Numbered from the stretch's first letter, positions 10,986 to 53,252 are shown. The stretch is DNA of 64,000 bases from Marsupella aquatica (GCA_973895155.1 OZ316894.1:14025580-14089579); one strand, 5' to 3'. The notes: a model not told the origin generated them from the letters alone. Made by a program: numbers and translations.

Positions 10986-13900
10986 CACTAGTAGAAACCG
11001 GGGCAATTTAGACCATACCTTATAGGACTATGCCCACTAAGTCCTTTTTCCATACTTAAAACGACTCGCACCCATTGCACCGGTTTTGTTGAAGACTAGA
11101 AAAGACTATGAGAGTTTTATGGTTCACTAAAAGACTATGAGAAGTAACCTTGCTACTTTGTGAAGGGTGAATAGTCTAGCACATCATGGGTAATGTTCAC
11201 TCTATGTTGAGGAGGGGTAATTCTCCTTCATCTTTGAGCCGAAAGCACCGACGTCTATCGAGTGCCAAAGAACTGCTGGAGATCGAGCGAATTCACACTC
11301 TCAGATGTGGGTCGTGTCAAATTGTTTCCTCCATTGATGGCAGCCTTCTGTGAGATTGATTTATACTGTGTGGCTATCTGGGAGTTTTGTCGACTCATTT
11401 GACACCGATACTCCCGTGATTTCCTCATACATAGTGCCACTGCCCCCCCCGCATTGTGTTCAATCCCTATAGCTTATAGCTGCACCACTCTTGGTGGCCC
11501 TTGCTCATGCCTTGGTTTTTTTTTCTTTTTCCCATTACAGTATACACCCCCTTCTTACTAATCAGGTGGATTAATTTAGTACTAGACAATGCTTTGACAC
11601 TTTACACTTACACTATGCTGACCTACTGCGCCTTCTAGTGCTTATTCCCTAGTTGTTACTTGTTGCATGGACCACTAGAAGAACGGCTTCGCAATCTTTG
11701 CCTGATCTGATGACCCTGGTTGAGTAACTCTTTGTTATTGCCTCCTTTGGGTGTTGAGGTTTTATGATGCCATTTGGCCTACTGGTTCCCCCATCCGTGG
11801 GGTTCACGCGGAATAAATGTAAAATTTCAAACAAATAAATAAATCTATAAAGAGGGTGATAGCAAGGGGCATAACTCATTAAATGTCCTTATTTGTGACC
11901 AAAAAGGTTTTGGGTTTAATGAAGTGGGGTTCATGGAGGTTGGACCATGGAGGGATGGTCAAGATATTCTTGGCCATTACTAAATCCATCTATAAAAGGT
12001 CAAGATGCACAAAGGTAGATTTGTACCGGTCCTTTTTCATACATTAGAGCTAGGTCACATTCTTGCACCGGGAATATTGCATTTTAGGACCGGATATAAT
12101 GTTGGGCAACCTTAATCCTGATTACGTCGTGCAATAAAATGTCACTACCGACCATGTATGTGCAAATATGACCATTCATTGCCTAAGTTGGCCATGCAGT
12201 AACACTTTGTAGCTTTGTCCCACTTTGGGTGACACTCAACGGCTCACTCAAACGGTAAGGCTGAGTGGCTTCCCCTAATTCGGTTTCAGGCACTAAACTT
12301 CACTTTGGGAGTCTCTTTGGAGTTTTCGCCATTGTCATTGAACTTAGAACGTGAGGGGTGGAGTGTTCGGGGTTTTACGTAGGGTTTTCCTTTCAGTGTT
12401 GCCCACTTTTTGCGACCATTGCGGAGTGAACTTCCCGCGCGTTATGTGCTTGTTTATGCTCTCGAGGAGCAGTGTTCAGGCAGTTGCAGTGATCTAACCT
12501 TGCGCTTGCAGTCTACTCATAGACCTGCATTCCTGCTCGATCTCCTTTAGGGACATTTAGTTTTTGGCTGGTAGGGCGAAGAAGGTTGTGGCTGTTGCAA
12601 CGTTCGTGAGGAGCTTGTCGGAGTTTGAGGAGTCGGAGGTTGGGGTTTCTTCAAGGTTTTGGGTGACAATCTCGGTCACAGTTGTGGTATAGACCCTTTT
12701 GCTGCACCCATAACGAGCATCGGGAGGCCGTGAGGCTCATTGGGAGGTCCTTCAGTTGTCAAGCTGCCGTTGAGCTGGTGAAGTTGCATGCGGGTTGCAT
12801 CTATTCTGCGTACACAGTCAATGTGGGAATCCATATTTTCATAGTGCTTGTTCTTGCAAACTGGGAGCCGAGAGTTTGGAGTCGGGAGCTAAGAAGGGTA
12901 TTGTTAGGCTTCAATTACTCTGTGGTTTTCTCCAGCTCCATGGTACAGTTTCAATGTTAATGCTTTGTCCTTGTGCTGGTCTAGGTAGCGCGAGCTTCTA
13001 CCTATTGCGCCCTCTTGCTGTAAGCGTATTGAGCTGCCAACTGAGTGATTCATACCTATAGCTGCTTACGCGTGATCAAGAGATTGAACAAATGCCTAGT
13101 GCTGTCCAGCAGGAGAAAACTCTTTTTGGTCACGATCGGGTGTTGGAATATAACTAAGTGCGGCAGAGCAACACGGGGAGCTGTAGAGTTGCAGACAAGA
13201 TGCAACTACAGAGGAGGCATTGGGAAGGACACAACGGTGTGGTGAAGGTACAAGGACCGTGGACCCTAACTTGTTTGCTGCCTTGGGAGGATCCGGAGAG
13301 CCCGAGGCGACATGCTTCATTGAGCCTGAGCTAGCTGAATCCAATCCAGGAGTTGTTGCGCTAAGGTGAGACTTTGAGTTTAGGGTTGCTTCAGTGTCCG
13401 AGTAGGTTTTCTCTTTGCGTCGGCAGCTAGAAGGTAAGCTCGGGGGCTTTACAAAGGGTTAGTGTTGCGGACTTTCCCTCCTGGACGTTGTGTGTCTTCA
13501 TTTGCAACTTGTTTGTGGACCTGTGATCCTGAGACTGTCAAAATTGTTGTGGCCGCACTGACAACTTGATGACGCGTTTTGTGGATGCACCGTTAGTAAT
13601 CGCGAGTACAGCTCTCCAACAATTGCACTTACCATTTTTGACCACCTTGCATGATGTCCATCCGTGGGCTGGACCCCAAGAAGTAGATTTCGGTAGATTT
13701 CGGTAGATTTTGTCTCTGCCCCCGGTCCTCATTTTGTGCAATGTCCGCCTGGCACTTGGTTCTTGATCCCTACATTATCGTCTGTCGCTCGGCTGCTTGC
13801 GGAAGGGATCAAACAGATTGGAGGTGCTTGGTCTTTTCATTTTGAGTGTCAGAGTTTAGGAGGACAGCTTGCACCATCGCCGACAAGAATGACCTGCTTG

Positions 13901-15381
13901 CAGAACAAGAGGGACGAGCGTGAGCTGCTTGCAGAATAGGAGATTGACCGCGAGCACAAGCTGCTTGAAAAATAGGAGACTGAGGGCAACCTGCTTCTTT
14001 GTTGCTACTCTGGTTGCGCTGCTACATTGGTTGTTGATCTTCACCCACCCACTTGCCTACTCAATTGACAGAGTACAGCTTTGTCTCTGCGTGTGTTATT
14101 GCTGTCTTTGTCCCTCCCCTTGACATTGTGGGCCTTAAAAGGTCAGTAAGTTGGCTTATGTAGTTTTTATGTCCCTCCGCTATGTCAATGCGTGTTTCAT
14201 TGCATCAGGGCATCAGTCGCTGTTTGCCTATAACCGGACTGTTCATTCTCTGTCCACTCATTTGATGTAATTCTTCCCATTGCCGCCCAATGCTATGGCG
14301 CCCATGCTACAATTTGTGGTTTTTGTCTAAGCACAAATCCTCTCTGTGCCTGGTCTCTGTGTCCCGTCATTTGGATTGATTGTGTAGACGTTTCCTCTTC
14401 TCCCAGTCCTTGTCATCCACCAGCCAAAGCACATTGGATTGTTTTCAAAGGAGGGCTGTGTAGTTTGGAGGGTTTGATCTATGCAGCGGATTTGAGCAGA
14501 TTGGCGGTTGTTAGTTTCTTCTTGTAAAACCTGTCTGTCTTTTCTGCTTTTGGCCATGCTCCTTCACTTCTTGCTGCAAGCTCAATGTGCTTCAGCTATG
14601 GCAATATTCACTTACCCTATCCCAACGGCACTACCGTGAGCTGTAGGACAGCCAACAGAAGCAGATTGTATCGATTGCATGTAAGTCAGGGTATTTTATG
14701 TATTGCGGAACAACTGTCCAAGTTTGCTGCAATGGCCGGTCTTGCGCAGCTGAATGAGCCAATTTCATTTTCCCTGTGCACTTCTATTTCTCAAAGAATT
14801 CCCTGGTCATGCTCATTTCCCCCAGAGTTAGAAAACAAAGAAGAAGAGCTGACTAATTGTAATTCCAATCCATATCCTGATCGGTCAAGGATTGTTCACT
14901 ACATTGGCCTTGTCATTGGCCGAGGTCACCAAATTTTGCTTGGTTTCATTCCTGTGGAGCACTGCTGTGATGGATTTGTCGTAGCATTCTGCAAACTCTC
15001 ACGGTTTGCTTATGGCCATTATTTGCAATTTGCTGCTACTAATATGTCTTCTTCTGAGCAGCATACACCAGAAGTAAGCAATAGTGGAGGTTTAACTGCA
15101 CATCAACACATCTAGTGAACTACCTCTCTGCTGCTCACTGGAGGGTGAGACTTTCACTCTTTCTGGATATTGTAGTTTGTAAGCAAGTTGATTAGGAGTG
15201 TTTCATGCTATGTTTACACTGTGACCCCTAGCTGGAACCAATGGAATGACACAGTGAGTGGGAACTGATAATTTAAGGTTGGTTGCTGTTGGTGAGGCAA
15301 GTACAGCTCCTGCTCACCTTGCTGATCGAAGGTGCTTATCAGAGGACGTGAACACACGACATCTCCACAAAAGCAACACTT

Positions 15382-15831
15382 ATGGTGAGGACCCGCAACG
15401 CTGAACATGTGCGGCTTGCACGCAAGGCAGAGATGTTGCGCCTTGAGTATGTCAGACTTGGGATCCTTCCAGCCCAGTCTGCATGGTACTTTGAGTACCC
15501 AGTTGTTGCCAGGAACAACTACAGCCGGCCTGTACCTGCTTCTCCACCCTTCCCAACATCCTTGGTATTTCTGTCTCTCATACATGACCCACCACAAATT
15601 AGGGCCCAAGGGTGTGTGCACAGTTGCCAATATGACTGTCCTGCCTGTAGGGCTTCTGGCCTAGAGTTGGATGACCGTTCTCTTGGATGTCGGTTTTTTC
15701 ACAGAGCACGATGTATCATCTGGAACCACTCGCCATCCTGCAGTGTGCCTGGCGATGTCACTTGTCCTGCCCTCCCAGACCCCACCACCGGTCACTTTGG
15801 TGTCTACACATGTTTGGATCACACGCTCTAG
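15382..15831 (+). CDS. Orphan Cys/His/Pro-rich 149-aa protein (CACTA cargo ORF A)
   Basis: Intact ATG-TAG ORF of the same length in element 2 (52031-52480), 138/149 aa identical. Hand count gives about 12 synonymous and 13 non-synonymous changes. Motifs include CxHxCxxxCxxC. No family recognised. Confidence 0.6.
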   Translation: MVRTRNAEHVRLARKAEMLRLEYVRLGILPAQSAWYFEYPVVARNNYSRPVPASPPFPTSLVFLSLIHDPPQIRAQGCVHSCQYDCPACRASGLELDDRSLGCRFFHRARCIIWNHSPSCSVPGDVTCPALPDPTTGHFGVYTCLDHTL

Positions 15832-16500
15832 AGGACCACTTGTCACACCGCATGCACAAACCAGAGACCATTGACCTATAACTTAACACTTTGACTTGAA
15901 CAGAGAGGATATTTACTTAAGATTTTGAATTATGACCAATTTTGGGTCCAGGGTTTAGGGTCAACAGTACATAACTTATCCTATTATGGCTGCACTAAGT
16001 ACAATATCCTAATTTAAGAGGCTAGCAAGCTCACTTAAAAGTCTCCTTTCAAAGACTGGAATTAATGGGCCATGTGATAACCTGGAAAAAGTGATTTATG
16101 CCTAACTTATTTGTCTCATTCACTATCATAGCCTATTTAGGATGTATAAATTACAACCCTGATCACAGTGCTTGATACCAATCCTGTTCAAAAAATGCCT
16201 GTTTTACATGTCACGATTGTTATATGTGATTCAAATGCATTAAATCTTGTTGCAGATCTCCTTTGGTGAATCATAGCCACAAAATTGAGGTGTAGGTGGA
16301 GCTATTGTACGAGGGGATCAGTTTTTAGTGTGGGCTCAACAAACCAAAAAGTATGTCTACTCTGCACATGTGTGTGAACATTTCATTGCAGTAGCAATTG
16401 CCACTCTAGTCTATATGCTACATTGTACTTTTTGTACACTGCACTAAATTGTATTGTCCGTGCACTCTGCTAAATTGTACTATCTGTCTCATGCGTAGGC

Positions 16501-17181
16501 ATGGCACGCCCTAAAATCCGAGCCAAGAAGCGGGGGACAGAGGTGAGCAACACAGGTGTAGTTGGGCCAGATGGTAGTAACTTCTCCGCAAGTCAGATTT
16601 TCCAGAAGGCAGCTCATTGTTGTGCCATTTGTGACGATGGTGGTGGCTTAGCCATATGTGAGGGCCCTTGCATGAGGCATTTCCACCTCAACCCAGAGTC
16701 TGACCTTGCTGCAGAAAACAACTGTCCAGGGGTGGGCCTCCCGTCAGTACACCAGGGAGGCTGGATGTGCACTGATTGTTTGGAGAAGCAGGCTAAGTGT
16801 GCACAGTGTGGGAAGTTGGGGTCTTATGAGGGCTCTGTTGATGCTCCACCACTTGTTAGGAAATGCCCTGACAGATATTGTGTGAGGTTCTTTTGTTTTT
16901 CATGTTTGCCCGATCTTGCCACAGCTTGCCCACTTCATAAGTGCAAGGCATGTGGTCAGCACGATGAAGATTTCTGGGTGGACATAGTCCACTGTGTTAG
17001 GTGTCCCACCATGTGGCACTTTCATTGTTTGAAGGAGCGTCAAGCAGAAGGCTATGCTTGTGACAGACACATCTATCATCACTCTGCACATGGTGTTGAT
17101 CGATGGATCTTCTATTGTCATCGCCATGCCATAGATCCTACTTTGCACACTCCCATGAGAGATCACATTTCTTGGCTTTGA
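16501..17181 (+). CDS. Stand-alone EDM2-like composite PHD-finger protein (CACTA cargo ORF B)
   Basis: CAICDDGGGLAICEGPCMRHFH, CTDC...CAQCGKLGS, CPLHKC, CVRCPTMWHFHCL and IFYCHRHAIDPTLHTPMRDH follow the remembered EDM2 PHD region (CAICDNGGxILCCEGxCLRSFH...CPLHKC...CRRCPKSYHRKCL...LIYCxxHEIDxxLLTPVRDH) in order. Confidence 0.9.
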   Translation: MARPKIRAKKRGTEVSNTGVVGPDGSNFSASQIFQKAAHCCAICDDGGGLAICEGPCMRHFHLNPESDLAAENNCPGVGLPSVHQGGWMCTDCLEKQAKCAQCGKLGSYEGSVDAPPLVRKCPDRYCVRFFCFSCLPDLATACPLHKCKACGQHDEDFWVDIVHCVRCPTMWHFHCLKERQAEGYACDRHIYHHSAHGVDRWIFYCHRHAIDPTLHTPMRDHISWL

Positions 17182-17781
17182 ACCTGAATAATATACATGC
17201 ATAGTGCACCTGATGTGGATACCTTGGAGATTGCAGACATTCCAATTTTGAGAAGAAGGACCTCTGTAGGAGAGGATGCTTAGGCAACAAGTACCCTAAG
17301 TTCATTACTTGTTCCTGGGTACATGCCTTCAAAAACTGCCCTTAAAAGCCTTCTAGGAACTTTTTTAACTCTGCAATCATTTTGATCACGACTTACATGA
17401 CACTGCTTAAATTAAATCAGGACTTCTCATTATGAGCATATAAGTTACAAGGCTATTTAATTTGCGAGAATTCCCTTAAAGTGTACCAACATTTTGTATT
17501 CTCATTGAATGTCTGCCCATTTACAACATCTGTATGTGGCATCACAAAACAATTGCACTTGTCACCTTCAATATTGTGAAGGCACATATTCAAACTATGA
17601 GGTGCATGCTTGCAAGTGTCTAGTACGTTTGTCCCAATATTTCTCCCGTTTGGAATCGGAGCAGAGACTCACCAGACGACTGGACTGGACCAAGTTATAA
17701 ACGCAGCATTTTAAGGGCCCTCCGATTATCAGGTGAACGCATTATCTTCCGGTCTGCAGTGATTAGGTGGCCCGTGTGTAC

Positions 17782-18630
17782 ATGGCCTCTAGGAAACGTA
17801 CAAAGGTTGACCACCCGCCTCTGTTGGCTGGAATCAAAGCCATTTTGATTCCTGGCCACTATGGGTTCACCCAAGTGAGTTGGCCAATCGTACAAAAACG
17901 ATTCTCAGAGTTCCATGGGACTGAAGTCAAGGACATCACTCCACAGACTACACATGTTGTTGCGGGGACATGGCTGGATGTGATGAACAAGTGGTCATGG
18001 TCCTTCATTGATTCTGCCATTACCAACCAAGGTCTAAAAGTAGTTGAAGTCTCTTGGCTGACCGATTCTGTTAAACATAGGTGTGTACAGAGTACTGAGC
18101 AATATGAGTTGTGGGAGAGTGAGGAGGCCACTGCAGAGGCTTTGGCTGAAAAGGAAGCCTATGAAGCAGCGGCAGAGAAACCCAACTTTGCTTCTGTCCA
18201 ATATGGACCTGTTGTCAACATAGGACACCATCCTATGCGTGCAGATGCTATATTGAATGAGCATGGCAAGGAGAGAAATACCATTATGAAGGGGTTCAGT
18301 GTGGTATTTGCAGAAGAAGGAATTGGGGAGACTAAGTGCAGACTGTACAAGTCTATAGTTGTTGAGCTAGGTGGGACAGTGGAGGAGAGTCTAACAGAAA
18401 CCTCCACTCATGTTGTAGGTCTGTCATACATGAAAATATGCAGAAAATTCTTTAAGACAACAGTGCGTGATTTTGTCATGAACAACAATCTTTGGGTGCT
18501 TTCCCCTGATTGGCTTCTGGAATCAGCAGCTAGAGGGAAGCGACAAAATGCTTGGGACTTTGATATTTTTGAGGCCTGGCCCTCCAAGATTCAGCGGAGA
18601 TGTATGCTTAGCAAAGGTGGGAGAGAGTGA
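17782..18630 (+). CDS. Tandem two-BRCT-domain protein (CACTA cargo ORF C), DNA polymerase lambda-like BRCT
   Basis: Two repeats of (L/F)xG..hydrophobic..GG/HG...THVV...W(L)xDS/ES, e.g. MKGFSVVFAEEGIG...ELGGTVEESLTETSTHVV...PDWLLES. ATG at 17782 is followed by a basic NLS-like RKRTK. Confidence 0.88.
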   Translation: MASRKRTKVDHPPLLAGIKAILIPGHYGFTQVSWPIVQKRFSEFHGTEVKDITPQTTHVVAGTWLDVMNKWSWSFIDSAITNQGLKVVEVSWLTDSVKHRCVQSTEQYELWESEEATAEALAEKEAYEAAAEKPNFASVQYGPVVNIGHHPMRADAILNEHGKERNTIMKGFSVVFAEEGIGETKCRLYKSIVVELGGTVEESLTETSTHVVGLSYMKICRKFFKTTVRDFVMNNNLWVLSPDWLLESAARGKRQNAWDFDIFEAWPSKIQRRCMLSKGGRE

Positions 18631-18806
18631 GGAGTAGGAGTCCCTCATATTTTTGTATAAAACACAATTTTGTAATAAATGTGATCCTTGAACTAACTCA
18701 TCTTGTCATGGTTGGTCGTAGTTGAAGTGATTATTGTTTCCTGCTGCGTGGGGTGTGACTGTGAATCTACTTGCTGGGCTCTGTTTGGCTGAAGACTTTG
18801 GTGGGT

Positions 18807-19340
18807 ATGCTGCCTCTTCCAGACCGTCAGGCCCTATGTAGGGTCCTCCTATGGGTTGCATCGTGCATGGCTACTGCTTGGGCTTACTTGTGTGGATTGG
18901 TAACCAGACAGAGTGTAGCTCCATCCGAGATAATGCCTGCAGACCTTGGATGTGTTGTGAATGCTGTGGTGAATGAGGATGCACAGTCGGAAGAGGACAT
19001 TTACTTTTCAGTAGATGAGTTAGACAAGCACGATGCTGTAGGTGGTTCCTTGTTGCCTGATTTGGCAGATGATATAGTTCTTACACATGTCTGGCCGAGG
19101 GTTCTTGTGGTGTCTGGCGCACAAGATATCTGCAAATATAGACTAATTAGTACCCAGTGGAGGGACTTGGTAGCAACATGTGCACCATGGAGGGCACTGC
19201 TGCCACTGCTTGTAGGCACGGATCGAAGACCACCATGGCATGAGCAGGGTTTAGACCTTGATGACTTAATATACATGCCTGAGTACCTCAGGGCTGAGTG
19301 GCATCGACAACAGGATTGGTATCCGTATTTGATGTGGTAG
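18807..19340 (+). CDS. F-box-containing protein (CACTA cargo ORF D)
   Basis: LLPDLADDIVLTHVWPRV...DICKYRLISTQWRDLV fits the F-box consensus LPxLPxDI...L.R.xVCKxWRxL. First ATG is at 18807. Confidence 0.65.
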   Translation: MLPLPDRQALCRVLLWVASCMATAWAYLCGLVTRQSVAPSEIMPADLGCVVNAVVNEDAQSEEDIYFSVDELDKHDAVGGSLLPDLADDIVLTHVWPRVLVVSGAQDICKYRLISTQWRDLVATCAPWRALLPLLVGTDRRPPWHEQGLDLDDLIYMPEYLRAEWHRQQDWYPYLMW

Positions 19341-19666
19341 TAAGATGAGGACATCTCACACCGGTCTCGCACCTGGCACCTGTGTCTATGACTATACATG
19401 ATTGGACTCTGATATGGTCATGGATGTACGTGCAGAGGCAGTACATGTGAGGACAGCGGAGGAGTTGACACCCTCAAACATTTAGGAATTTTGTCTCATT
19501 CACTTGAGAATAGGTACATGACTCAGGCACCTATATTTTTTGTTTTTTTGTTTTTTTGGAACGTTACGTATTTTGGCAAGTACAGTCGGGGGTGAAATCC
19601 TTAACAGGAAGTGTATTTTTCACTTGCATAATAAAATGACAGGGTGCTGAGTGCGTGTGTATAGTG

Positions 19667-22600
19667 ATGGCTCCAAGGTTGCCTCTTCACAACCCATTTA
19701 GGATTAGGCATCATGATTCTAAATTGTGGATGCGTGAACAAGCCCGGGCCGCCCAAGGTAGGAGTAGGAGGATGAGATGCCCATGCACACAATGCCAAGG
19801 ATTCAAGTCGTTGAGTTTGAACACTGTGCACCTTCACCTGCTGCGGCATGAAAGGCACCCTCGGTGGAGGGTTTGGAATGTACCAGCAGAAGAAGACTCC
19901 TCTGATGAAGAGTGGAGAGCTGACTTTGTGGATTCTAATACAGCTAGGCGTAGAGCCTACGTAGAGCAGGACATAGACTGTGTAGAGGATGGTCCTGGGG
20001 TCCAACATGAGAACGTGGATGACCAAGATGGAGATGCAGAGGCAGTCACTGAGGACGGTGGGATGGATGTCCCAAGAATGGTTCAAGAGATTTTTGAAGA
20101 CCTTGATGCTTTTTACGACACAGTGGAATCAGAAGAGGACAATGAACCGCAGCCACACATTGGCGACGGCCAAGCTCAACCTGACTTTGACATTGGGGAA
20201 GGTGCAGCAGAGAGGGAGTGGGTGTTTGGGGGCCCAAAACACATCAAAGAAGCTTGCATTCCTATCTACGAGGGGTCGAACTGCTCCAAGCTGGGTTTTG
20301 TCGTGTTGTTGTTGAACATCTGTGGCAATCACAATGTTCCCAATATATTTGTGACAGAGTTGTTGACCTTCCTGCGCCGAAATGTGTTACCAGATGGTAA
20401 TTCAATTCCAAAAAATATGTACGAGGCTAGGAAATTGATGTCTAACCTTGGGCTGAACTATGTGTCTATTGACGCATGCCCTGATGGGTGTGTTCTCTTT
20501 CGCAAAGAGCATGCAGATAAATTGACATGCCCTCATTGTGGTAAGGACAGGTACAAGAATGTAGGGAAATGTACACACCCTGCCAAGGTTCTTCGTCATT
20601 TTCCTCTCATTCCTAGACTACAACGTCTGTTTAGATGCCCTGCCATTTCCAAGCTGATGACATGGACTCCTGATAACAAGAGCAGTGATGGCCTGCAGTG
20701 TCACATTGGAGATTCCAACCATTGGAAATTTGTTGATGAGAGGTGGCCACAGTTTGCTACAAAGAAGCGGAACTTTCGATTTGGTCTATCACTGGATGGA
20801 ATAAACCCATTTGGAGACAAAAACAACCGTTATTCATGTTGGCCGGTTACGCTGCTAAATTACAACCTTCCCCCATGGATGACTACAAAGAGGTTTTTTG
20901 TCATGATGGTGCTGTTAATCCCTGGACCAGCTTCTGTGACCGAGCAATTCATAGATATCATGTTGGCTCCAGCAGTGGAAGAGTGGAAGACTTTGTGGAT
21001 AGAAGGGGTGTTAACCCATGATGTTCTGAAGGGGCTTCTTCGACCCAGCCCCTTTAGACTGCATGCAATTTGTTTGCTGGATATAGCAGATTACCCAGGC
21101 CATGGCATCATATCTGGACGAGTGACAAAGGGCTATGTGGGGTGCACACCATGTGGGAAAAATGTGACAAGTGAGTGGTCGCATGCCCTGCACAGTATGA
21201 AATTTCAGGGGCATAGAAGGTATCTGCCTGTTGATCATCCTTACAGGCACACACGGTCTCAAATTGCACACTTCAACAACAAAACAGAGCTTCGTGGCCC
21301 ACCACAGAGGGTCACCAGAGAGCAAGTCCTGAGGTGGGCAGCCAGGAAGGCTGATTGGGACAAGAGAAGTGCCACTGATCGAGAACCTGAGGATCCAGTG
21401 GTGAAACACGGTGTGAAAAGACAGACCTTGATGGACTTGGAGTTGGAGTACTGGAGGGTAATGTACTTAGCCTCCAGCCCCTGTATGATTGCAATTTTAG
21501 ATTGGAGCAATGGTGGATTGATGTTGGTTACAATCCTCCTATGTGGTTAATTAGTGTTTCTGTTGTTGAATTCTTTGCTTTGTGGAGTGCAGGAATTCGA
21601 GCCCAGCAAACACAATGTGGACGTCATGCACATTGAGAAAAATATTTGTGAGAGCTTGCTGAAGTTCTTGTCGGGTGAGAAAGATACAGGAGCAGTTCGA
21701 GCTGATATGCAACAGAAGGGGATTCGCCCTCACCTTTGGTTGAAGCCCCATGCAAGCAATCCCAATGTACTTCTCAAGTTCCAAGCTCCCTATGTGTGCA
21801 CACAGGATGAATGGAAGACATTCTTGTATAGATTGAGCTGTCTGAAAGTGCCCTCTGGCTATGCTGGTGCCTTCAAGAAGCATATTACAAAGAATAAACT
21901 TGGCAGTATGAAAACACATGACTACCATGTGTTGATGCAGCACATTCTGCCCCTATGCCTCAGAGGTCTCATGCAGAAACCAGTCCGTAATGTCATTCTT
22001 CGACTGTGCAATGTATTTCGCCGTATATGTGTGAAAGTGTGGGATCCCCAAGGATTGGAGCAGTTGAAGCAGGATGCTGCTTATGTCCTCTGTGACTTGG
22101 AGATATACTTCCCCCCTGCTTTCTTTGATGTTATGACTCATCTCCTAATCCATGTGGTAGAAGAGCTAGGGCAGTATGGGCCAGTCAGTACCAGAGGATG
22201 TACCCTATGGAGCGATACATGAAGTTGTTGAAAGGTCATGTGAGAACATACTACAGGCCAGAGGCTTCCATGGCATTGGGGTACATTAAGGATGAGACGT
22301 TGGGATTCCTAACAGAGTACATGGCTGGGTCTGGTGAAGCTATGACAAGAGTTTGGAAATCTGGTGAAGATGATGGAGTGAGTGGCGAGGTTGTTGAAGG
22401 TGTGGGACGTGCTGTTCAGCTGCCTGTTGCGATTCGAGACAAGGCTCATTCATATGTGCTGGCAAACACAGAGCCTATGCAACCATGGTGGAGGTGAGTG
22501 ATTGAATTGACTTGCCTTTGTTGTGATGCTTCTTGTCTGTTCCAAGGGTGATCTTAGGTTGTCATGTGTTGTTTAGACCTAACTATGCCTGTACCTCATA

Positions 22601-23366
22601 ATGCAGGGAATATGATATGCAAAAAGCTGCACACTCTGGGCAGCAGGATCCCTTCCCATAGTTCGAGCAGTGGATTCGGGTGACAATTCGAGAGCATAGT
22701 AGACATCACCCAGATATGGAGAAGGATTTGTATCTTCTATCTGTGCCACCACGATTGTCTATTCTGACCTACAAACGGATGAGAGCTTATGGAAATCATT
22801 ATCGAGTGAGGGATGAGCAGGGTGACCATTGTGTATCATATGATTGTGGTTTGATTTATGTGTTTGAGCAGAGAACCTCTGAAGAACAGAGGGGGTGGAT
22901 GAAGATGGGTTACGTGGGGGAGTTGACCGACATTTGGGTGTTGAATTATGGTAACACAAGTGTCCCAGTGATATTGATGAAGGGATCATGGGTGAAATCA
23001 GAGTGGCAGAGACCAAGGGCCACCATGAAGCGTGATCATGATGGGTTCTTGTTGGCCAATTTTAGGTCCAGAGTACCAGAATGGTCTGAGCCTTTTGTTT
23101 TCCCTAGCCAAGTTGAACAGGCTTTCTTTGCAGATGTGGAGGAGTCACATGGCTGGAGGGTGGTATGCCATAGCCAAGCACGGAACAGGCGGATGGATGG
23201 AAGTAAAGTAGAGTTCAGTTTGGATGACCATGCTGCATTCGAGCATCCTAGTCATGAGACTGTACTTCCAACTCGGGCAGGGACTGACTACATCCCCTTA
23301 ACATTGAGAGAGACATATGATGAACCTGGGCAAATGGAATATGATGAGGTTGATGATTTGCAATAG
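19667..23366 (+). pseudogene. CACTA transposase (TnpD/Tnp2: Transposase_21, DUF4218, DUF4216) of element 1; exons about 19667-21457, 21593-22493, 22607-23366
   Basis: Motifs RCPCTQC, IDACPDGCVLF, LSLDGINPF, YNLPPW, DVMHIEKN, MKTHDYH, FPPAFFDVMTHL and YPMERYM. There is a 1-bp deletion near 22195 (STR-WMYP) and an in-frame TAG at 22659-22661. Confidence 0.93.
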
Positions 23367-23539
23367 GCAACAGCTGGCGATTGGCAAGTATGAGGTTGAG
23401 GATGACTACCTGCACAGAGTCACATAACGGGAATTGCTGCCTGGAATGATGTTTAGGATAGTTGGATATGCATGAAATTGATTGATACTTTGAATTTAGT
23501 GTGCTGATTCTCCCTGTTTGGTTGTGGGTGCTGTGCAGA

Positions 23540-26500
23540 AGCTATGGGGGAAGAGGGTGATGACATGGAGACAGACATGGGGCTTGGAGAGTGGGGTGAA
23601 GAGGAAAGATTGGATATGGATGGAGACCCAGATGCAGGGGGCTCACAGAAAAATGCACCTGTGCAAGATGCACAGGGCCCTCATCAAGTCCCAGGTAGGT
23701 GGGCAGCTAGAGAGAAATCACATAATCCATACCCTAGAAGGAGCCAGAGTTATTGGCAAGGGACGCCTGATAATTATGATGATGACTATGATGGAGCAGA
23801 AGATGGATGGGATGAATATGAACACCCAGAGCGTGGTAGAGACGGGTACAGAGGGCAATGGAAAGGTGAGGAGGATGATTGGACAAGTAAGTGCCTTGTG
23901 CTAGTGATTTTGTGATGGTAGTAGAGATTTAGCTCAATATGCACTTATCTGATGTGTAGCTAGGGCAAAGAGTTTATCTTACAGGTCCATGAGTGTGGCA
24001 TGTACCTGTTGGTATGCAGACTCTGATTGGGACAATCACGAAAACAACAAAGGCCATCCACATTCAGATAGGAGGCAATCATTCACAGGCGGGAGAAACG
24101 CCCCTAATTCATCAAGACAAAGCAATAGGACAGGTGGTCCAGAACCATCTATGCGCCAAGGGAGAGGTAACTTGGTCATTGCAGAATTGCTCTGAAGTCC
24201 ACTGTATATTTGGCAGCGGGATTTATGATTCATACTTACCTAATGTAAGTGACTGTAAATGGATCCTGTAAATGTGCAGGGACTCCAGGGAGGTTTGGAC
24301 AATGCAATCCAGGCCGTGGGGGGAGATCAGGCCGTGGAGGGACCCCAGGCCGTGGGGGGACACCAGGCCGTGGAGGGACACCTAGTAGCGCTTCAGGGAG
24401 TACCAAGGCAGGAGACAGTAACAAATTTGGTAAAGTAGAAGTGAATTCCGAAGGTTGGATAACTCCCACATGTGATGGTAAGAACCGTTGGCATTCTGAC
24501 CTAAGAGGAGAAGTATTGCGTTGGTTAGATTTGAGCATTATAGAGTTTAGGAGTCAGAACAAAGCTGATTGGGCTGCTATCTGCAAGGACATTCTTGAAC
24601 GGTGGGAGTATGTTGGTAATGATGGTAAGGGCCCAGTTGAAGATTGCATATCAGATTATGCAATGAGGATTTTGAAACAAGAGAGGCATAGGTTGAAAAG
24701 GATGTGGATAGACAATGGTTCTAACAGGAGAATGCCACCACCCCCATCATTGGAACTGGATCAATGGACACGGTTAATCAAAGGGTTCATGTCGGAGGCT
24801 GGACAGAGCAAGAGTGAACTGATGTCAAATGCTCGAGGCAAAGTGAAACACCTTTCACAGGTTGGGAGAGGAAGTTATGCTCCAGTGAAAGAACAATTGG
24901 TAAGGCAGTGACATGCCTGATAGTAAGCCTCAAACTTATCATCTTGCTACCATTATTACATTTTCATTGACAATCAACACTTGGTTTCATTCATATGTAT
25001 GTTGATGTGGACTGCAGAAGAAATTGACAGGTGAAGAACCATCAGCACAAGAAGTGAGAGAGGAGTTCATGAAACAAAGGAGTGAGGTGACAAGTGTAAC
25101 TTCCAAACAGGTGATTATGTTGTAATTCTGTATGTTCTGTGACTATTTGGCCTTGAGCATCAGAAAGAAATGTAGTAGGAAGTAAGCAACCAGTTCTTGG
25201 GGACAGTTATCTGAGATATGTAAGCTGTGTTATGACAGGGAACTGTTACAACTCTCACAGAGATGTGTGAACGGTTGAAGTCATTAGAGTGTGGACTCCC
25301 TCGAGTGGAAAGTAAATTGGCTGATCGTTTGGATATTGTGGAGGCATCTATAGCGAACCTTCTTGCATCAGTGGAATCTAATTTCAAGCTTGTGATTGAA
25401 AAATTGGGTGGTTCCCAACCAAACAATGAGGGCAACATTGTACAAAGTGTGCCCTTGTTAACAAAAAAGGGAATTGGCAAATCTGACACAGGTATGGAAA
25501 TGACACCGGCCCATTGTTCATTGTGTCCTATGTTCAAATGTCAGAAGTAAGTTTTCATGAATTGAGTGAATGGTTTGAATGCAGGAAGAGTGGAGGCAGA
25601 GAAGGACCCTGTAATCAGTAAGCAGAAGGGCAAGAAGGTTGCTGAGACAGGTAACCTGCTATGATCCAATACATTACATTTGAAAAGTGCATGGAGTTTT
25701 GTGAAGCTTAAGCCGGTTGGAGGTAATCTTTTCTGTAAGAACTGGTTGGATGAACTGGGATCTGAAGTGACATCATGATTGATGTATCAGGTGATTCAAA
25801 GAGCAATAATGAAGAAGATGTGCCCAGTGCCTCAGTGACCATAGCCAAGGAGGTATCAGGTAAGCTGATGCTTTAAATTCCTCTATATGAATGTTGAGCA
25901 ACAATTCAGTGGTTAATAGATTCAACCTGAATATTGTGGTGTGTTTATTGATCAACAGAAGCAGACATGGAGCATATGGCAATGGCAAAGAAGGGGAAGA
26001 AGGCTGTTCATAATGGTAAGGAGATAGTGACAACTTTGTGGTTGGTGACATGTACATTTAGCACATGTGATGAGTGATTGACTTATGTTGGACATGACAC
26101 TGAATTGTAGTTGATGCAGAGTTGACAGACTCTCAACCAAGTGGGAGTAGGGTGAAGCGACATCGAAACTTGGGAGCAACATTGGATGCAAGTAAGATTG
26201 TAGATGCTTCAATTGAAGCAAGTACAATGTTGGCAGATACTGAGATGATGTCGCAGGGAAATCCTGCTACACAATCAGAAGTGTCAAATATGGATGCAGA
26301 TTCTTTGAAGAAGAGTGTAGCCAATTCTTGATCACCAGCACAAAACACTCGTGCCAAAGTCATGACTCGCAACCAAGGTATGAATAATGTCATGTATAAG
26401 CCACCCAGGAAAGCCAAGAAAAACAGCCAGGGTAAGGTGGAGGTGATAGCCACAGCAGAGCCAGTCCATAATCTTCTATCATGGGAGGATGACTCGCAGG

Positions 26501-26715
26501 TATGTGTGGGTACAGGCATTTTGCGACCGGATCATGCAAAATTCCATGGCAAAGTGGTCCCGGATGACCATGTAGTAGTGTTGTTGACTACAGTGATTGT
26601 ATCTGATTGTAATTTGCCATTTCCGAATAGAGACGATGATCCACCTCAGGAAATAATTGCAGATGCAGTAGGATCTCTTATGCTCTGGCCATCAGAGTGT
26701 GTTAGTCTGCAGTGA
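23540..26715 (+). CDS. Multi-exon TnpA-like (ORF2) gene of CACTA element 1; exon boundaries approximate
   Basis: Acidic/Gly-rich N-terminus, PGRGG repeats, core KNRWHSDLRGEVLRWLD...QWTRLIKGF...SELMSNARGKV...VGRG, and C-terminal FHGKVVP...LPFPNRDDDPPQ...DAVGSLMLWP. Homologous to the minus-strand gene at 60023-63814. Confidence 0.75.
24310..24381 (+). repeat. 18-bp tandem repeat x4 encoding (P/S)GRGG(T/R)
   Basis: CAGGCCGTGG(A/G)GGGA.... occurs four times. Confidence 0.9.
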
Positions 26716-27544
26716 CTGAATGCAAGTGTAGATAGCATCATGTGAATTGTGTCACATTTTGACATTGCCTTGGAAATATCCAAGAAATATTTGTACCAAT
26801 TTTTCCATTTGGTAAAGAGGATGAAGGAGACGTTGTGTGTGACATTGATATTTCTGAATTCTGTATGTATGAAACAAGTGATTGATGTCAAACTATGGCT
26901 CTATGGTGATTGTCTATGATACTTAAATCTATTTTATCATTTCAGTATTAGTGTGTATGGTATAGAGGAATACGTTGTGACCTTCTTTGTAGTCTATGAA
27001 GTTTGAATCTGTGAATTCATATTAGTGTACATGGTATAGAAGATGGATTTCTGAAACTATGTATTCTAATGTTAACATGATGAATGGTGAACTTATAGAG
27101 TGAGTTCATTCCAAGTACACAATAAAACATGAATGCAATATGTTATTTGTGCACAAGAGTGGGTTCATTCCAAGTAGTATAGTGGGGTCTTCATCACTCA
27201 TATCCAGTTGACATAAAAGACTTATACATACCCCACAAAGTATATTTAAAGACTACCCTCCATAACCTTTTTAGTCGTTCCCAACGACTCATCATCGCAG
27301 CCCATAAAAGACTAAAAACGACTCACCAAAGCTACCCACACAAAGACTAAAATAGACTGAAAATCCAGTCTATTAAACGACTTATAAACCAGTTCTATAA
27401 AGGACTCAGTTGATTATAGTAACAAAACATACGACTCGCAGTCCTATAAAGGACTAGAGTCCTTCCCAGTCGTTTCCAAGTCCTATACGGTACTGAATAG
27501 TCGTTTAATGGGGTCTAAATACCCCCCGGTTTCTACTAGTGATG

Positions 27545-47279: not shown

Positions 47280-48744
47280 GTTTTGACAAGTGTCTTTCAA
47301 TGGTGATTACATGGTTACCATATGTGGTTTAACATAACTATCCATGTGTAGACTTGTCAAATGGTTTGGTTGATTATCAAGTGGTTTGGTTAATTGTGTT
47401 GAGCAATTCATCCAATCATTTAAAATATACACACGGTATACACGCACTAGAAGAAAACGTCCCCTTTTGAGACCCTATGCTTTGTGACTTTAGGGAGACT
47501 TTCAAAAATACATGACTCCAAGTTTAGGGGAGTCATTGTTGTTACATTTTATCAACTGATTTTTGGGGGATATTTGTGAAAGTCATTCCTACAACTTCTG
47601 ATAAAGTAGCAATTGTAACACTAGTAGGGCAGTCATATGTAAGTTGAATAAGCTACTCTCCATTACGGCATTCTGAAATAGAGTGCAAGAAGGATTACAT
47701 GCACTCTAGACATCACGGAATGTTCCATTTACAACCCTTGACTTGCAACTTGCAGAGTCGGGAGCACTAGGTGCACATAGAAGGAATGGGGGTTTAGGGT
47801 TGCAGAACTAGTTAAATGTCTTCATGTCAAGAGCATTGTAGCTAGTTATCCTAGCTAGCCTAATTAAACGTGCATGGGAGTACTTGCCTCTATAATAGTA
47901 AGTCTTATGCTGCTCAATGGATTCCTTAGAGTTCATGGGCAACTTTGACAAGAATATTGGGGTGATATCATTTTCAATTCAGGGCTAAAGTAGTGTCTGG
48001 CCCCCATTCTTTGTCCACCCTCCTAAGTGGCATGTGTAAGGGTTAATTTACAGTTGCGTTCTAAGAGGTTACAGTTGCTTTCATTTAATCTTTGCTCACA
48101 AAGTGTCGTGTCCAATTTGCTTTAGGGTACTAACATGTGTATCAACGGCTCATGTCAACGCAAAGTGGTCGAGGGGGTTTGGTTCACTAAGTGTCACTAA
48201 GTGTTAAGGTATGCTTTGTGCGTGAGTGTGCCTTTGGACACGAGTTTAGGGTGCGCGGGTTTTGTTTAGGGTTTAAACACGCCAGTAGAGTGCAAAGTTC
48301 AGTTCAATGTGCGTGGGAACTCGGAGGGTTTTGTTTCAGAAAAACTCACTTGTCCATTACGGGGACATTCGTCGTGCCTGAAGGTCGTCACATTGTGCGC
48401 GGTCTCACAAAGTGGGGAGTGTGCTTCGCGATCGGGGCAGTTCCTTCGCGTAGGGGAGTTTTGCGCTTGAAGCTTGAAGGTTTACCTTCAAAGCTCTAGA
48501 GCATTCAAGCTGAGAGGGCGACCGGCTTGCGGAGTGGAGAGGTGAGCTGTAGTGGACGATGAGCTCTAGGACTGGGAGGAGCTATGGGCGGGCAGGAGCT
48601 GCAATTTGGGAGCTGCTCTGGCCGCCGGTCTGGCCGAGGAGCTACGAGCGGAGAGCAGCTGGAGTGGAGCTCGAGCGGAGTGGAGCTGGAGTGGAGTGCT
48701 TCTGTCACACACTGCTGAGGATTGCTACGTAGCTTCAGTTTGGG

Positions 48745-48965
48745 CGGCGGTGCGAGCAGAGGTGCTGAGAGCGGCTCAGGTGCCAAAGGAGGTGGTGCGA
48801 GCGGAGGTGCGAGCGGAGGTGCTGAGAGCGGCTCAGGTGCCAAAGGAGGTGCTGAGAGCGGAGGTGCGAGCGGAGGTTCTGAGAGCGGCTCAGGTGCCAA
48901 AGGAGGTGCTAAGAGCGGAGGTGCGAGTGGAGGTGCGAGCGGATGTGCTAAGAGCGGAGGTGGTA
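48745..48965. repeat. GC-rich compound tandem repeat (GGTGC(T)GAGAGCGG / GGCTCAGGTGCCAAAGGA units)
   Basis: The repeated blocks give low-complexity ORFs in several frames (GGASGGAESGSGAK on plus, APEPLSAPPL on minus). Confidence 0.85.
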
Positions 48966-50680
48966 AGAGAGGTGCTATTGGATCACTGAGAAGGCTACAA
49001 CCTCTCTATCTTATTCCTACTATCTGGCGGTTGCAGTTGGAAGGAGGGTCGAGTGGCGAACATTTTGTCAGTTGAGGACTCAGCTACGGGTTTGTCATTT
49101 CCTAGAGCTCAATCGCTTGCTACTAAGACTACTGTTGCTGCAATTGCAAGTTGCTTGATCATGAGCTACCTAGCTCCATTGTGAGTTGCCTCCCTATTCT
49201 CCTTGTTCTCCCTGTCTCCCCCTTGCTTGCAGTTACTATCGCCAGGAAGAATGTGTTTGGCCAAGATGCTAGATTGTGACTTGTCTTCTTGCTTCTAGCT
49301 CGTGTATATGCTCGCATCCGTGGGGGTTCCTCGAGTTTGAGTCTGCAGAGGAAGAGTCTATCATAGTCTAATTAAATGTGGGCCATATTACTCTGGTCAA
49401 TGAATGAGTTCCCTGGAAATAGAACCTCTCTGATTATAGAGGTGTGATTTGGTCAGAATTTTTTCCCCTCTCATTGTATCCACTGATGCCAACTCACTTT
49501 CATCACCTCAATTCTGAACAATGAGCGTAGTCTCAGGCTCCATACTGCCTATACTGAATGGTCTAGTTGCGATGTCCACCTCGGCTGAAGTGAGCTCTGA
49601 CTTGGAGCCTTAACATTTGTGTTCTGTGGGGCTGATTAGAGTTGGTTCCGTCCAGAAGCTGCTCTACTGAAGTGATAGAGCTCCGGCTTGGAGGTGGATC
49701 TTCACTTTTTTGTGGGTCTGAGTGACTTCTGTCTAGCTGGGCTTAGCTGAGTCAGTAATACATTCAAAAGAGGTGAGTATCCCTGACCAACATTTATTTA
49801 CTCTTGACCACGCCAAACTAATGGCGCTTCAATTTGAACTTTCTAAGTCTGACTGCTGACTCCGCTCCTTAAAACCTACCTTAATTATATTCATGTCTTT
49901 CTTTTGTGCATGCGCATAATGTCTTTCATTCAGTTTAACATTAAATGTGAGACAGGGCTGCATCCAGCTCTTCTAGATGACAAGAAGGCATTGATCAGTT
50001 GCTTTTTGATCTTTCCTCACCAAACAAGAAATCTTTCTTACAAGAAACCTGTCTTACAAGAAATCCAGCCTGGCCGAGAAGCTGCAAGTGGGGAGGATGT
50101 CTGTAGAAATTTGTAAGGAGTGGTTTGTCTCACAATGCCATTGTTGATGAAACCTTGCTTCTGCTGATGAAACCTTGCTTCTTCTTAATCCAATGCTTGC
50201 TGCCTTGTTACAACGTTTGTCTAGTTGACCGCTTCAGTGCCTATTCTTCATTTCCTGTTGTTCCATTTTTGGAAATTTATGCTTAAGGAACCTGCATTTC
50301 CTTCCCTGTCCCCATGCTATCTCCACTGCACCTTCCACTGCTAGCTATGTTGATTCCTTCCACTGCTAGCTCTAGACAATGATGCAGTCCAAATGCTGAT
50401 CAGTCTCACTGGGGGTGCCGGTGCAGACACAACTCGCACTGTGTGATTGTAGTTTTGCTTTGTCGGGACGAATGTGTTTGGCTAAGATGCTAGATTGTGG
50501 CTTATCTTCTTGCTTCCATCTCGTGTATATTCAATTAGTAGAAGCTGGGAACGAAGTGAAAATTGAATTTCCTTATATTAAGCATCCTGACCTAGAAACT
50601 CAATACATAAACTCCTGGAGTCCCTCGGGACATAAAATGAGCCAAATTGTTTCAAAATTGGGAACCTGCACCCGCACTAC

Positions 50681-51022
50681 TCAAACAAATGTGTTGGGCT
50701 TGGTGGCCTTGTAAGTCGTCTTTAGCTTTCGCGATGGAGGTTGAATCTTGCGGTACGTCAAGGGGAACTTGATCTTTGAATCATGGAACTGCTTGGTACT
50801 TTCTCGCTTGCACAGAGAGACAGGGACTGTCGTAGTCTTGATGATCTGGATGCAAGGGAACCAAACTCTATGACAAGAAGCCATCTCATCATACATCTGC
50901 TCTACAGCGATGTTCAATGTGGTATCACGATATTTCTTGTACATGTTGGGATAACCTGTACGACTCTGATACCTCACCCAGATACCGAAGTTCTTAATTG
51001 TGGTGGGCTTCTTTTCAAAGAT
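50681..51022 (-). pseudogene. RPL18A: Captured last exon of a 60S ribosomal protein L18a (eL20) gene inside CACTA element 2
   Basis: ...cag|[37 protein letters not shown]...[18 protein letters not shown]...[17 protein letters not shown]...[13 protein letters not shown]. No upstream exons were seen, and several conserved residues are mutated. Confidence 0.92.
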
Positions 51023-52030
51023 CTGGTAGACACATTATTCAACATTTGCTAACTTCGAAACTAGAAGGGTAACACATTAAACAACAGAGAAACTCACAAC
51101 ATCCTCCTTTGGTCCTTCAGAGTCTGTACTTTGATTATGAAGTTTGACTGAGTTTCTGTTTACTGAAAGAATGTGATTGTGTAAGAGTTTCGTTTGGCAG
51201 TGGATTGGTTGAAGCACTTCATGCTAGTGTGTTGTCTACAGCTCTTCAACCAGCTTTCGTCTTCCTTGTCTTTCACCACTTACGATGACATCAATTCAGC
51301 TAAGACCATAGAAGGTTCCAAAGCATCTAACTTGTAAAATTGCATTCTGTTACATCAAGGACTAAGGTGTTGGGTGCCAAAGGAGACAACACAACAAACA
51401 CGCTGAAAAGACTTCAGGACTGGGTTCAACAAGGTAGTGAAGGTGCTTAGAGCCTAGTAAGTATGCATTCTGTATCTTTCTCTGTTGATGTGAGCTTGTG
51501 CATAATGGGAGTTGTAGTTGGCAAGAGTTCCAAATATGAATAGATCCAGAAGTATGTGATCATGTACTTGCTCTATAAAGTTCTGAAGATATAAGCATTT
51601 TCTGTTAGACCAGGCAACTTGGGAGTTGGTAAGTGTCACCTGCATCTGAGGGGCTACACCGGGGGCATCAGTGGAGGTTCACTTGCTCAACACGACAACC
51701 AGTGAATTTTCTCTCTGCTGCAACCTGCAAGGTGAGACTTTCGGTCTTTCTGGATGAAAAAACAGGATTTTAATACGATTGATATACATGTCCATCGAGA
51801 ATATGGGTTTATCACCAAGCTCTTTGTCTTAGGAAACTCATAAACTCAGAATCAAATATATACTATGCACGTTTCATGCTATGTGTATACTATGACCTGT
51901 AGTTGGAACCAAGACAATGAGTGGGAACTGATTAGTTTAGGTGGTTGCTGTTGGCGAGGCAAGTCGACCTCCTGCTCACCTTGCTCATCAAAGGACGTGA
52001 ACAGAGGACATCACAACGAAAGCAACACTT

Positions 52031-52480: not shown

Positions 52481-53097
52481 AGGACCACTTGTCACACCGC
52501 ATGCACAGACCAGATACCATTGACCTATAGCTTAACACTCTGACTTCAACACAGAGGATATTTACTTAAAATTTTGATGTATGAGCAATTTTGGGTCCAG
52601 GGTTTAGGGTCAACAGTACATAACTTATATCCTATTATGCCTGCACTAAGCAAAATATCCTAATTTAAGAGGCTAGCAAACTCGCATAAAAGTCTCTATT
52701 GAAAGACTGCTTTCATGACTGCTTTAACCTGGTGAACATTGCAACGTTCAATGAATTAATGGGCCATGTGATAACCTGTAAAATGTGATTTATGCATCAC
52801 TTATTTGTCTCAGCCACTATCATAGCCTATTTAGGATGTATAAATTTCAACCCTTATGACACTGCTTCATACCAATCCTCTTCGAAGAATGCGCGTTTTA
52901 CATGTCACGACTATTGTATGTGATTCAAATGCATGAAATGTTGTTGCAGATCTCCTTTGGTGAATCATAGCCACAATTAAAATTGAGGTGTTGGTGGAGC
53001 AATTGTATTAGGGGATCAGGTTTGTGTGTGGGCTCAACATACCAAAAGTATGTCTGCTCTGCATCCTTGTGTGGCCATTCCAATTCATTGCAGTAGC

Positions 53098-53241: not shown

Positions 53242-53252
53242 CATGCGCAGGC

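Follow-up and report, generated by a model that had tools for sequence, protein, structure and literature searches.

A 64,000-nucleotide stretch of DNA from Marsupella aquatica (GCA_973895155.1 OZ316894.1:14025580-14089579), referred to here as the window, contains two CACTA (En/Spm) transposons that carry the same three accessory genes, open reading frames (ORFs) A, B and C, ahead of the transposase genes TnpD and TnpA. We consider it very probable that A, B and C constitute a selected module borne by transposable elements (TEs) of CACTA families. The reading that we prefer, at a probability of about 0.5, is that this intact, selected and likely exchanged module likely helps to keep the element transcribed; B, a stand-alone PHD cluster of the EDM2 type, is predicted to act as host EDM2 does and to bind chromatin marked by H3K9 methylation, in this case that of the element itself. 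An original prediction, made from the same DNA, had proposed a selected toolkit of four genes, A to D; purifying selection on A, B and C, which are not decaying Pack-type fragments, bears out part of it, and ORF D is not supported as a core member.

Two CACTA elements with a shared block of genes

Element 1 (Table 1) has identical 18-nt terminal inverted repeats (TIRs; 10986-11003 and 27524-27541) with the target-site duplication (TSD) ATG at each side, and no other CACTA/TAGTG pair of the window combines such long identical ends with a 3-nt duplication that matches. The marks of the CACTA superfamily found in it comprise the TIRs, the 3-bp TSD, the TnpD domains, a TnpA-like gene and family-specific subterminal motifs. 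On its plus strand, four uninterrupted ORFs, A, B, C and D, precede TnpD, which is followed by TnpA. The window copy of TnpD has a frameshift near 22195, where the dominant contig type has one extra base that restores the frame. The host site of element 1 is a Copia element with long terminal repeats (LTRs) at 8514-8956 and 30710-31154; the gag of the interrupted Copia lies to the left of element 1, its integrase and reverse transcriptase lie to the right, and Copia contigs with the empty site were found in 4/4 sequencing runs, with three letters ambiguous at the joint.

Element 2 carries A, B and C, all intact and in the order seen in element 1 (93, 85 and 59% amino acid identity, respectively). 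Its TnpD (55931-59167) is interrupted by a stop codon (56852-56854) and goes no further than 59167, so that both TnpD copies in the window are broken; the TnpD proteins of the two elements are 63 to 74% identical. The original prediction was thus right about the intact TIRs and TSD of element 1, its four co-oriented ORFs directly before TnpD and TnpA, the three ORFs intact in the same order in element 2, and the RPL18a piece of element 2 as a decaying Pack-type capture, of which the 5' part and the start are missing. Its statement that element 2 has different TIRs and a diverged transposase holds for TnpD; the TIR part can be read from the left end (47445) only.

Selection on ORFs A, B and C

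Between the copies in elements 1 and 2, the ratio of nonsynonymous to synonymous divergence (dN/dS, by NG86), a value of which near 1 had been named as counting against a toolkit, was 0.35 for A (149 codons), 0.29 for B (226 codons) and 0.58 to 0.60 for C (273 codons). Transition bias can mimic a low dN/dS, and neutral divergence was therefore simulated from the substitution spectrum of the spacers, in 400 runs per setting, either leaving out CpG decay or setting it at five-fold. The neutral simulations gave a median dN/dS of 0.97 to 1.07, and the observed value was reached in at most 3/400 runs for A, 0/400 for B and at most 1/400 for C, with a stop gained in 53 to 58%, 96 to 97% and 100% of the runs, respectively.

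Insertions and deletions (indels) point the same way: there were none between the copies in the 1131 nt of A and B, versus 13 in the 669-nt A-B spacer (P 3e-10); nucleotide-level indel counts for ORF C were discarded as alignment noise. Contigs from four public runs, which come from three studies and bear three organism labels, showed 78 indels; of the 12 best supported, 7 fell inside cassette spacers and none inside ORFs A to D. That A, B and C are decaying Pack-CACTA fragments was rejected on the grounds of whole ORFs, a dN/dS below 1 and their autonomous context.

Probable exchange of the module between lineages

The synonymous divergence (dS) between the two elements is 0.115 for A, 0.277 for B and 0.51 for C, as against 1.54, and saturated, for TnpD. 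The cassette spacers lie at a distance of 0.12 to 0.30 (75 to 89% identity), and TE-side flanks are also common to both elements (19377-19546 versus 55613-55784, 86%). The shared block, spacers included, is far younger than the split of the two transposases, and the similarity of the cassettes can no longer be taken, as it originally was, for conservation since that split. Because the dS of the block is far below that of TnpD, the block appears to have been exchanged between lineages rather than co-inherited, and since non-coding spacers could not stay 75 to 89% identical over the TnpD distance, it would have moved in pieces. On these sequence comparisons we consider exchange of the module between CACTA lineages probable, and the simplest route would be recombination between elements. 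A module acquired by, or refreshed in, a second, diverged lineage is, if anything, better evidence of a benefit to the element than the conservation first proposed. Just ahead of the shared block, element 1 has a 195-aa open frame (14528-15115) that is not in element 2 and has no significant Pfam match.

The cassette is standard cargo of young, high-depth CACTA families. In run X1, contigs of 650 to 1640 nt with 3 to 5 differences from the window (>99% identical) reached a depth of 1,770 to 2,070 over the D-TnpD junction, TnpD and TnpA; the C-D stretch stood at the same depth, and rare alleles at 17 to 24. Family 1 would thus comprise about 90 near-identical copies if a depth of about 20 is that of single-copy DNA. 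The depth over A and B was 2 to 4 times the TnpD level, as would be expected if further families share A and B, and contigs of the element-2 type had a depth of about 1,300 to 1,800. Runs X6 and X9 (low share) covered 28/30 and 26/30 bins, mostly at low depth, a coverage that speaks for the presence of relatives rather than for linkage; X6 also gave short high-depth contigs over B and TnpD. Runs X11 and X12, whose kind is not on record, gave short, diverged transposase-type matches only, without splice joints. One contig joint in run X2 (15820 to 22043; depth 607, 22-letter side) omits B, C, D and most of TnpD and may represent a non-autonomous deletion derivative.

ORF B is a stand-alone EDM2-type PHD cluster

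The Pfam search of B gave three NSD-type PHD matches, all below the cut-off. A word search with B returned five stand-alone relatives (217 to 245 aa, 38 to 81% identity), and a profile of the B relatives, run against 1.84 billion representatives, returned 570 matches, among which the short relatives rank first, followed by EDM2 and liverwort EDM2-like proteins. All 24/24 Cys/His columns of EDM2 are kept (one His replaced by Cys) in 8 or 9 of the 9 family rows, at 32 to 36% identity between B and the host EDM2 PHD cluster. Zinc-ligand pattern and profile search thus both recover EDM2, in agreement with the EDM2-type PHD first proposed. Relatives down to 36 to 43% identity retain the MARP-type start and the H-I-S-W end.

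B consists of the PHD cluster, without the DNMT1-RFD and C-terminal methyltransferase-like regions, and since only this cluster is present, its sequence marks it as EDM2-derived and not an EDM2 orthologue. In the tree, 10 stand-alone rows fall on one side of a branch of length 2.36 (SH-aLRT 100, and 98 in another tree), and the clade is closest to short liverwort EDM2-like paralogues; these were quick trees, one of them with 24 chosen rows, from which the two longest and probably frameshifted rows (P0145 and P0158) were excluded. This placement sets B apart from host EDM2, in a stand-alone clade that is old. All 17/17 short clusters of A, B or C relatives that were looked up were from raw assemblies (Logan, JGI, ENA), and none is represented by a curated gene record in NCBI or UniRef, as would be expected of masked TE genes; of the long EDM2-type proteins looked up, 8/8 have such a record.

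When metagenomes were scanned with the B alignment, the 11 loci returned proved to be host-type EDM2-like genes or generic PHD genes (26 to 46% identity), with no member of the stand-alone clade among them; in viral contigs, neither the B nor the C alignment gave a match. A different lineage of EDM2-like PHD proteins, also short and stand-alone, is encoded in plant-derived metagenome contigs (L001-L003, L005-L007); that of L003 has about 330 aa and an MARKK start.

ORFs A, C and D

ORF A has two relatives at 54 to 56%, and 7 Cys and 3 His are invariant in 4/4 rows; no family, structure or usable match was found for it in Pfam, PDB and Atlas, and from its conserved residues it is probably a zinc-binding orphan. 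Neither A (pLDDT 43) nor C (pLDDT 32) gave an AlphaFold model good enough for a fold search.

ORF C carries two BRCT domains, whose repeats match each other (24% identity, E 3e-12) across a linker of about 60 residues and both match the first repeat of BRCA1. One relative was found, at 62% identity. The tandem BRCT originally proposed is upheld as two domains, and a canonical phosphopeptide-binding type is not supported. A Ser-Gly and Lys pocket in repeat 1 and a short packing linker are the marks of BRCA1-type tandem BRCT; in the alignment, read with these pocket positions, repeat 1 of C has His or Tyr/Phe before Gly and no Lys at the pocket column. As a canonical phosphopeptide binder C is not supported, with no pocket serine in repeat 1 and a linker of about 60 residues versus a short packing one. 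Matches to PDB were weak (E 0.003 to 0.26), including DNA ligase 4 and TdT BRCT, and Atlas held only generic BRCT clusters below 0.9. The repeats may resemble the BRCT of plant polymerase lambda; no such sequence surfaced, only TdT BRCT (E 0.26).

ORF D had been proposed as an F-box adaptor of a ubiquitin ligase. Its F-box match stays below the cut-off (E 0.05 to 0.1, 13 to 14 bits versus 20.5), and PDB gave no match, the homologue search covering Pfam, PDB and the window. D is cleanly absent from element 2, in which the homologue of about 18785 joins directly to that of about 19345, and a 43-nt deletion (18971-19013) is found in it in run X5 (depth 43 of about 70) and as a minority in X2. The ubiquitin arm is unsupported because D is sub-threshold, missing from element 2 and frameshifted in some copies; it is better viewed as a putative coding gene that would be a dispensable later addition.

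Predicted expression and base composition

A 60-nt, ATG-free leader exon is predicted at the 5' edge of the shared block in both elements (Table 1). In both elements the ATG of B lies two bases after a YAG, which reads TAG in one of them and CAG in the second; a TCAG-G site is kept about 50 nt ahead of C and AATAAA after it, and the TnpA ATG of element 1 lies five bases behind a CAG acceptor. These signals suggest that several proteins may be made by alternative splicing from one leader, which would extend a habit of En/Spm elements, known to yield several proteins in this way (PMC13547354).

Observed over expected CAG/CTG was 0.99 in the non-coding CACTA interior and 0.99 to 1.07 in the neighboring host phospholipase D region, versus 0.70 in the Copia element, 0.18 in the Copia LTRs and 0.56 in CACTA subterminal DNA (p 3.5e-4 and 7e-5); CpG was strongly depleted (0.35). 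This composition, which is that of the host gene region next to the elements, suggests a gene-body-like history of the CACTA interior and agrees, as an indirect sign, with a counter-silencing role of B.

Proposed role of the module and alternatives

In Arabidopsis, TnpA demethylates the Spm termini only, and H3K9me and internal methylation stay (bioRxiv 10.64898/2026.08.24.746577). EDM2 binds H3K9me2, represses premature polyadenylation in heterochromatic introns and limits gene-body CHG methylation via IBM1 (PMC7529245). Because the element is long, multi-genic and furnished with internal poly(A) signals, an EDM2-like reader of its own would be advantageous. The preferred reading can be set out in several steps: (i) the leader exon (15085-15144) would be spliced from its donor at 15145 to separate acceptors ahead of B (before 16499), C (about 17733), TnpD and TnpA (23539), with a poly(A) site predicted downstream of 18680, as the conserved signals suggest; (ii) TnpA would demethylate the element ends only, leaving residual H3K9me inside; (iii) B would occupy this residual heterochromatin, so that transcription could pass through the 15-kb multi-gene unit with no early ending or CHG lock; (iv) C, judged by its domains, would be a bivalent BRCT adaptor bringing repair proteins to the excision break; and (v) A would be a partner without an assigned role, probably zinc-binding. 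That B itself acts as a counter-silencing reader, as the analogy with EDM2 suggests, we give a little less than an even chance. A broader proposal is rather doubtful, namely that CACTAs of seed-free plants turned the EDM2 reader into a stand-alone protein within a plug-in module, together with a double-BRCT and an orphan zinc protein, one-leader splicing and very long trading between lineages.

Several points weigh against the preferred reading: (i) the dN/dS values rest on two copies; (ii) B has no obvious means of telling cognate from host chromatin, unlike VANC or TnpA; (iii) with its long branch and the missing EDM2 domains, B may have changed its binding specificity, and its placement in the tree is subject to possible long-branch effects; (iv) the relatives of B (36 to 81%), A and C may be host genes or belong to other elements; (v) read depth does not measure copy number, and the window itself may derive from the source of X1; (vi) the CAG/CTG contrast comes from one window, and coding versus coding it is not significant (p 0.15); and (vii) the same CAG/CTG pattern is seen in the minus-strand CACTA and may hold for all CACTAs in the genome.

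Four other explanations can be considered. One, which we regard as unlikely, accepts the selection and has the module serve transposition: B would tether the transpososome to marked chromatin and C would recruit end-joining repair. The RAG2 PHD and the chromodomains of chromoviruses are precedents for chromatin-guided target-site choice, the same selection and linkage data fit, and BRCT domains are repair adaptors, as the ligase and TdT matches of C recall. Element 1 inside the Copia and a third CACTA end inside the TnpD of element 2 are both insertions into TEs, as a targeting role would have it, although two nested insertions are expected by chance in a repeat-rich window; the host relative of B, moreover, works on transcription and RNA 3' ends.

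Less probable again is a role of B as a decoy or dominant negative that masks H3K9me2 or titrates EDM2 partners genome-wide, so that the CMT/KYP loop is weakened non-specifically. Such a role would suit a reader-only protein whose start and stop are conserved at the edges of the PHD cluster and whose basic N-terminal stretch resembles a nuclear signal. A non-specific decoy, on the other hand, harms the host and helps all TEs, so that selection to carry B is weakened, and the Copia of the same window has a normal CHG-type depletion.

Somewhat less likely still, A, B and C could be passengers of the Pack-CACTA type: one or two captures would have taken up a host gene cluster, the selection would have happened in the host, and the genes would now hitch-hike in young families to no advantage for the element. 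An ordinary decaying capture, RPL18a, is indeed present in element 2, and the families are young (>99% identity to dominant contigs), hence open frames alone prove little. The dN/dS below 1, however, separates two copies that both lie inside CACTAs with common TE-side flanks, and B has no intron, retains the reader part only and is separated by a long branch from host EDM2-like proteins, with 0/17 stand-alone clusters having a gene entry as opposed to 8/8 of the long EDM2-type ones. Chance open frames or neutral decay, plausible for ORF D only, are highly improbable for A, B and C in view of dN/dS, simulations, indel counts and kept zinc ligands.

The broader proposal, if true, would give plant transposons their first anti-silencing system based on a histone reader, with an element body that is gene-like, CG and not CHG methylated. 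Among plant TE proteins, VANC and TnpA are proven to counter silencing; both bind DNA in a sequence-specific manner and take its methylation away. In an active, high-depth family, an EDM2 derivative that is under selection and reader-only would point to a second layer of the arms race, involving histone marks and the choice of RNA 3' ends. As a 226-aa protein, B is open to direct testing. The findings also call for caution with small "EDM2-like" genes and BRCT genes of plant genomes rich in repeats, since these may be cargo of transposons.

Other features of the window

The inverted CACTA end at 59168 has its first 11 terminal bases and the TGACT motif in common with the left end of element 2, and does not share the motif of element 1; the subterminal motif of the element-2 type occurs in 5 and 12 copies at these two ends and in none in element 1. 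Since the inverted end carries the subterminal motif of element 2, the inverted part is a related copy that was inserted head-on or else the end of element 2 itself after an inversion; it could be a self-insertion inversion within the TnpD of element 2. The TnpA homologue in this part (61532-62182) matches Transposase_24 below the cut-off (E 1.5e-4) and is 39 to 40% identical to the TnpA of element 1. Upstream of it lies a 73-aa stretch (63617-63835, minus strand), unlike the TnpD end and with no Pfam match, possibly a further cargo gene. An 11-base copy of the terminal sequence of element 2 occurs in the 5' region of element 1 (11673-11683).

Both elements have GC- and CpG-rich leaders (12200-13700 and 48150-49300; CpG observed over expected 0.66 to 0.73 versus 0.2 to 0.4 inside), which are likened to the GC-rich control region of maize Spm; that of element 2 contains a GC-rich tandem array of 12- to 15-nt units (48744-48976). 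Telobox-like motifs occur at 12380, 48267 and 55794. A diverged solo piece of a Copia LTR lies just left of element 2 (47001-47263). Between the elements, a host C2-phospholipase D gene (36350-42144, minus strand; C2, two PLDc motifs, PLD_C) is preceded upstream by degenerate tandem repeats with 17- to 35-nt units (42637-45452), and a MITE-like pair of 57-nt inverted repeats, 93% complementary and spaced 45 nt, lies at 45550-45708. A remnant of another TnpA-like gene (46% over 43 aa) is found at 2246-2359 on the minus strand.

Table 1. CACTA elements of the window and the genes within them
Feature	Position	Strand	Evidence
Element 1, complete CACTA (En/Spm), 16.6 kb	10986..27541	+	Identical 18-nt TIRs, TSD ATG
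Predicted leader exon, 60 nt, ATG-free, 5' edge of shared block	15085..15144	+	YAG and GTGAGA donor flanks
ORF A, 149-aa orphan	15382..15831	+	dN/dS 0.35, conserved Cys/His
ORF B, 226 aa, intronless EDM2/NSD-type PHD cluster	16501..17181	+	Pfam, profile search, Zn ligands, tree, dN/dS
ORF C, 282 aa, two BRCT domains	17782..18630	+	Pfam BRCT E 6.5e-14, 2 stretches
ORF D, 177 aa from first ATG, weak F-box-like motif	18807..19340	+	Pfam below cut-off
TnpD transposase gene, element 1, spliced	19667..23366	+	Transposase_21 E 2.4e-58, DUF4218, DUF4216, Transpos_assoc
TnpA-like gene, element 1, multi-exon	23544..26715	+	Transposase_24 weak (below cut-off, E 0.045), position and homology
Element 2: left end, GC-rich leader, shared block, truncated TnpD	47445..59167	+	CACTA end with TGACT subterminal motifs
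Captured RPL18a fragment, element 2 only	50681..51034	-	Ribosomal_L18A E 4.3e-14; 5'-truncated, without start codon
Predicted leader exon, element 2 copy	51672..51731	+	Same length and flanks
ORF A, element 2 copy	52031..52480	+	93% amino acid identity, dS 0.115
ORF B, element 2 copy	53253..53933	+	85% amino acid identity, dS 0.277
ORF C, element 2 copy, 290 aa	54526..55398	+	59% amino acid identity, dS 0.51
Oppositely oriented CACTA 3' part	59168..64000	-	Terminal CACTA at 59168, TnpA on minus strand

Comparison with known systems

The two elements share with canonical plant CACTA/En-Spm transposons the TIRs, the 3-bp TSD, clusters of subterminal motifs, a Transposase_21 TnpD followed by a TnpA-like gene, and likewise alternative splicing or a head-to-tail gene layout (PMC4158355, PMC13547354); they differ from these in three to four extra ORFs upstream of TnpD, which are selected and shared across families with distant transposases. 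Host-derived sequence within CACTA ends is the hallmark of Pack-CACTA elements (review PMC13317346), of which RPL18a is a plain example, in contrast to A, B and C, which are whole ORFs in autonomous elements with a dN/dS below 1. B has in common with host EDM2 the whole PHD cluster and all zinc ligands (PMC7529245, PMC3632883); it differs in size (226 aa and intronless versus 690 to 1630 aa), in a deletion of about 20 residues in the second finger and in WHxH and ISW motifs of its own. PHD fingers are also contained in Rehavkus transposases (PMC6446971).

Accessory ORFs of plant DNA transposons, including in part a captured host domain (Ulp1), are kept by selection in VANDAL elements as well (VANC/KIU; PMC10398659, PMC13317346, PMC6446971). 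These belong to the Mutator superfamily and encode sequence-specific DNA binders with proven demethylation, whereas B is not known to have sequence specificity, and Pfam gave no match to VANC/KIU in ORFs A to D. Fungal EnSpm and other DNA transposons carry an epigenetic accessory gene, TET/JBP, that is passed between transposon lineages with a proposed escape from silencing; unlike B, it is a single catalytic eraser and no histone reader (PMC12730594). Chondrus has 16- to 20-kb En/Spm elements with 4 to 5 ORFs (cited in PMC6431247). The nearest likeness in organization is that to PAG1-3 of red-algal Plavaka, a three-gene cassette of the EnSpm superfamily with one orphan and otherwise chromatin-related genes, which moves between TE families and whose function is inferred only (bioRxiv 10.1101/2025.02.11.637652). 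The PAG genes encode enzymes (adenine methylase-SET and ParB-2OG oxygenase), whereas the cassette described here, in the TnpD/TnpA element of a land plant, consists of an EDM2-type reader, a double BRCT and an unrelated orphan; the domains of PAG2 (methylase-SET) and PAG3 (ParB-2OG) were not found in ORFs A to D by Pfam, and the likeness is one of analogy only.

An EDM2-type PHD or BRCT gene in a CACTA element was not found in the full-text literature searched, a scope beyond which lie supplements, Repbase entries and subscription papers, and PHD and BRCT had no mention in the main texts of PMC13317346, the Arabidopsis TE-product atlas, PMC6431247, PMC12730594 and 10.1101/2025.02.11.637652. 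The novelty claimed in the original prediction thus stands for this gene set within that literature and was overstated for the concept, mobile multi-gene cassettes being known in Plavaka of the EnSpm superfamily and TET in fungal EnSpm. The three-gene module adds a new set of genes to a kind of system already known, and it extends the pattern of mobile accessory cassettes in red-algal and fungal EnSpm elements to the CACTAs of land plants.

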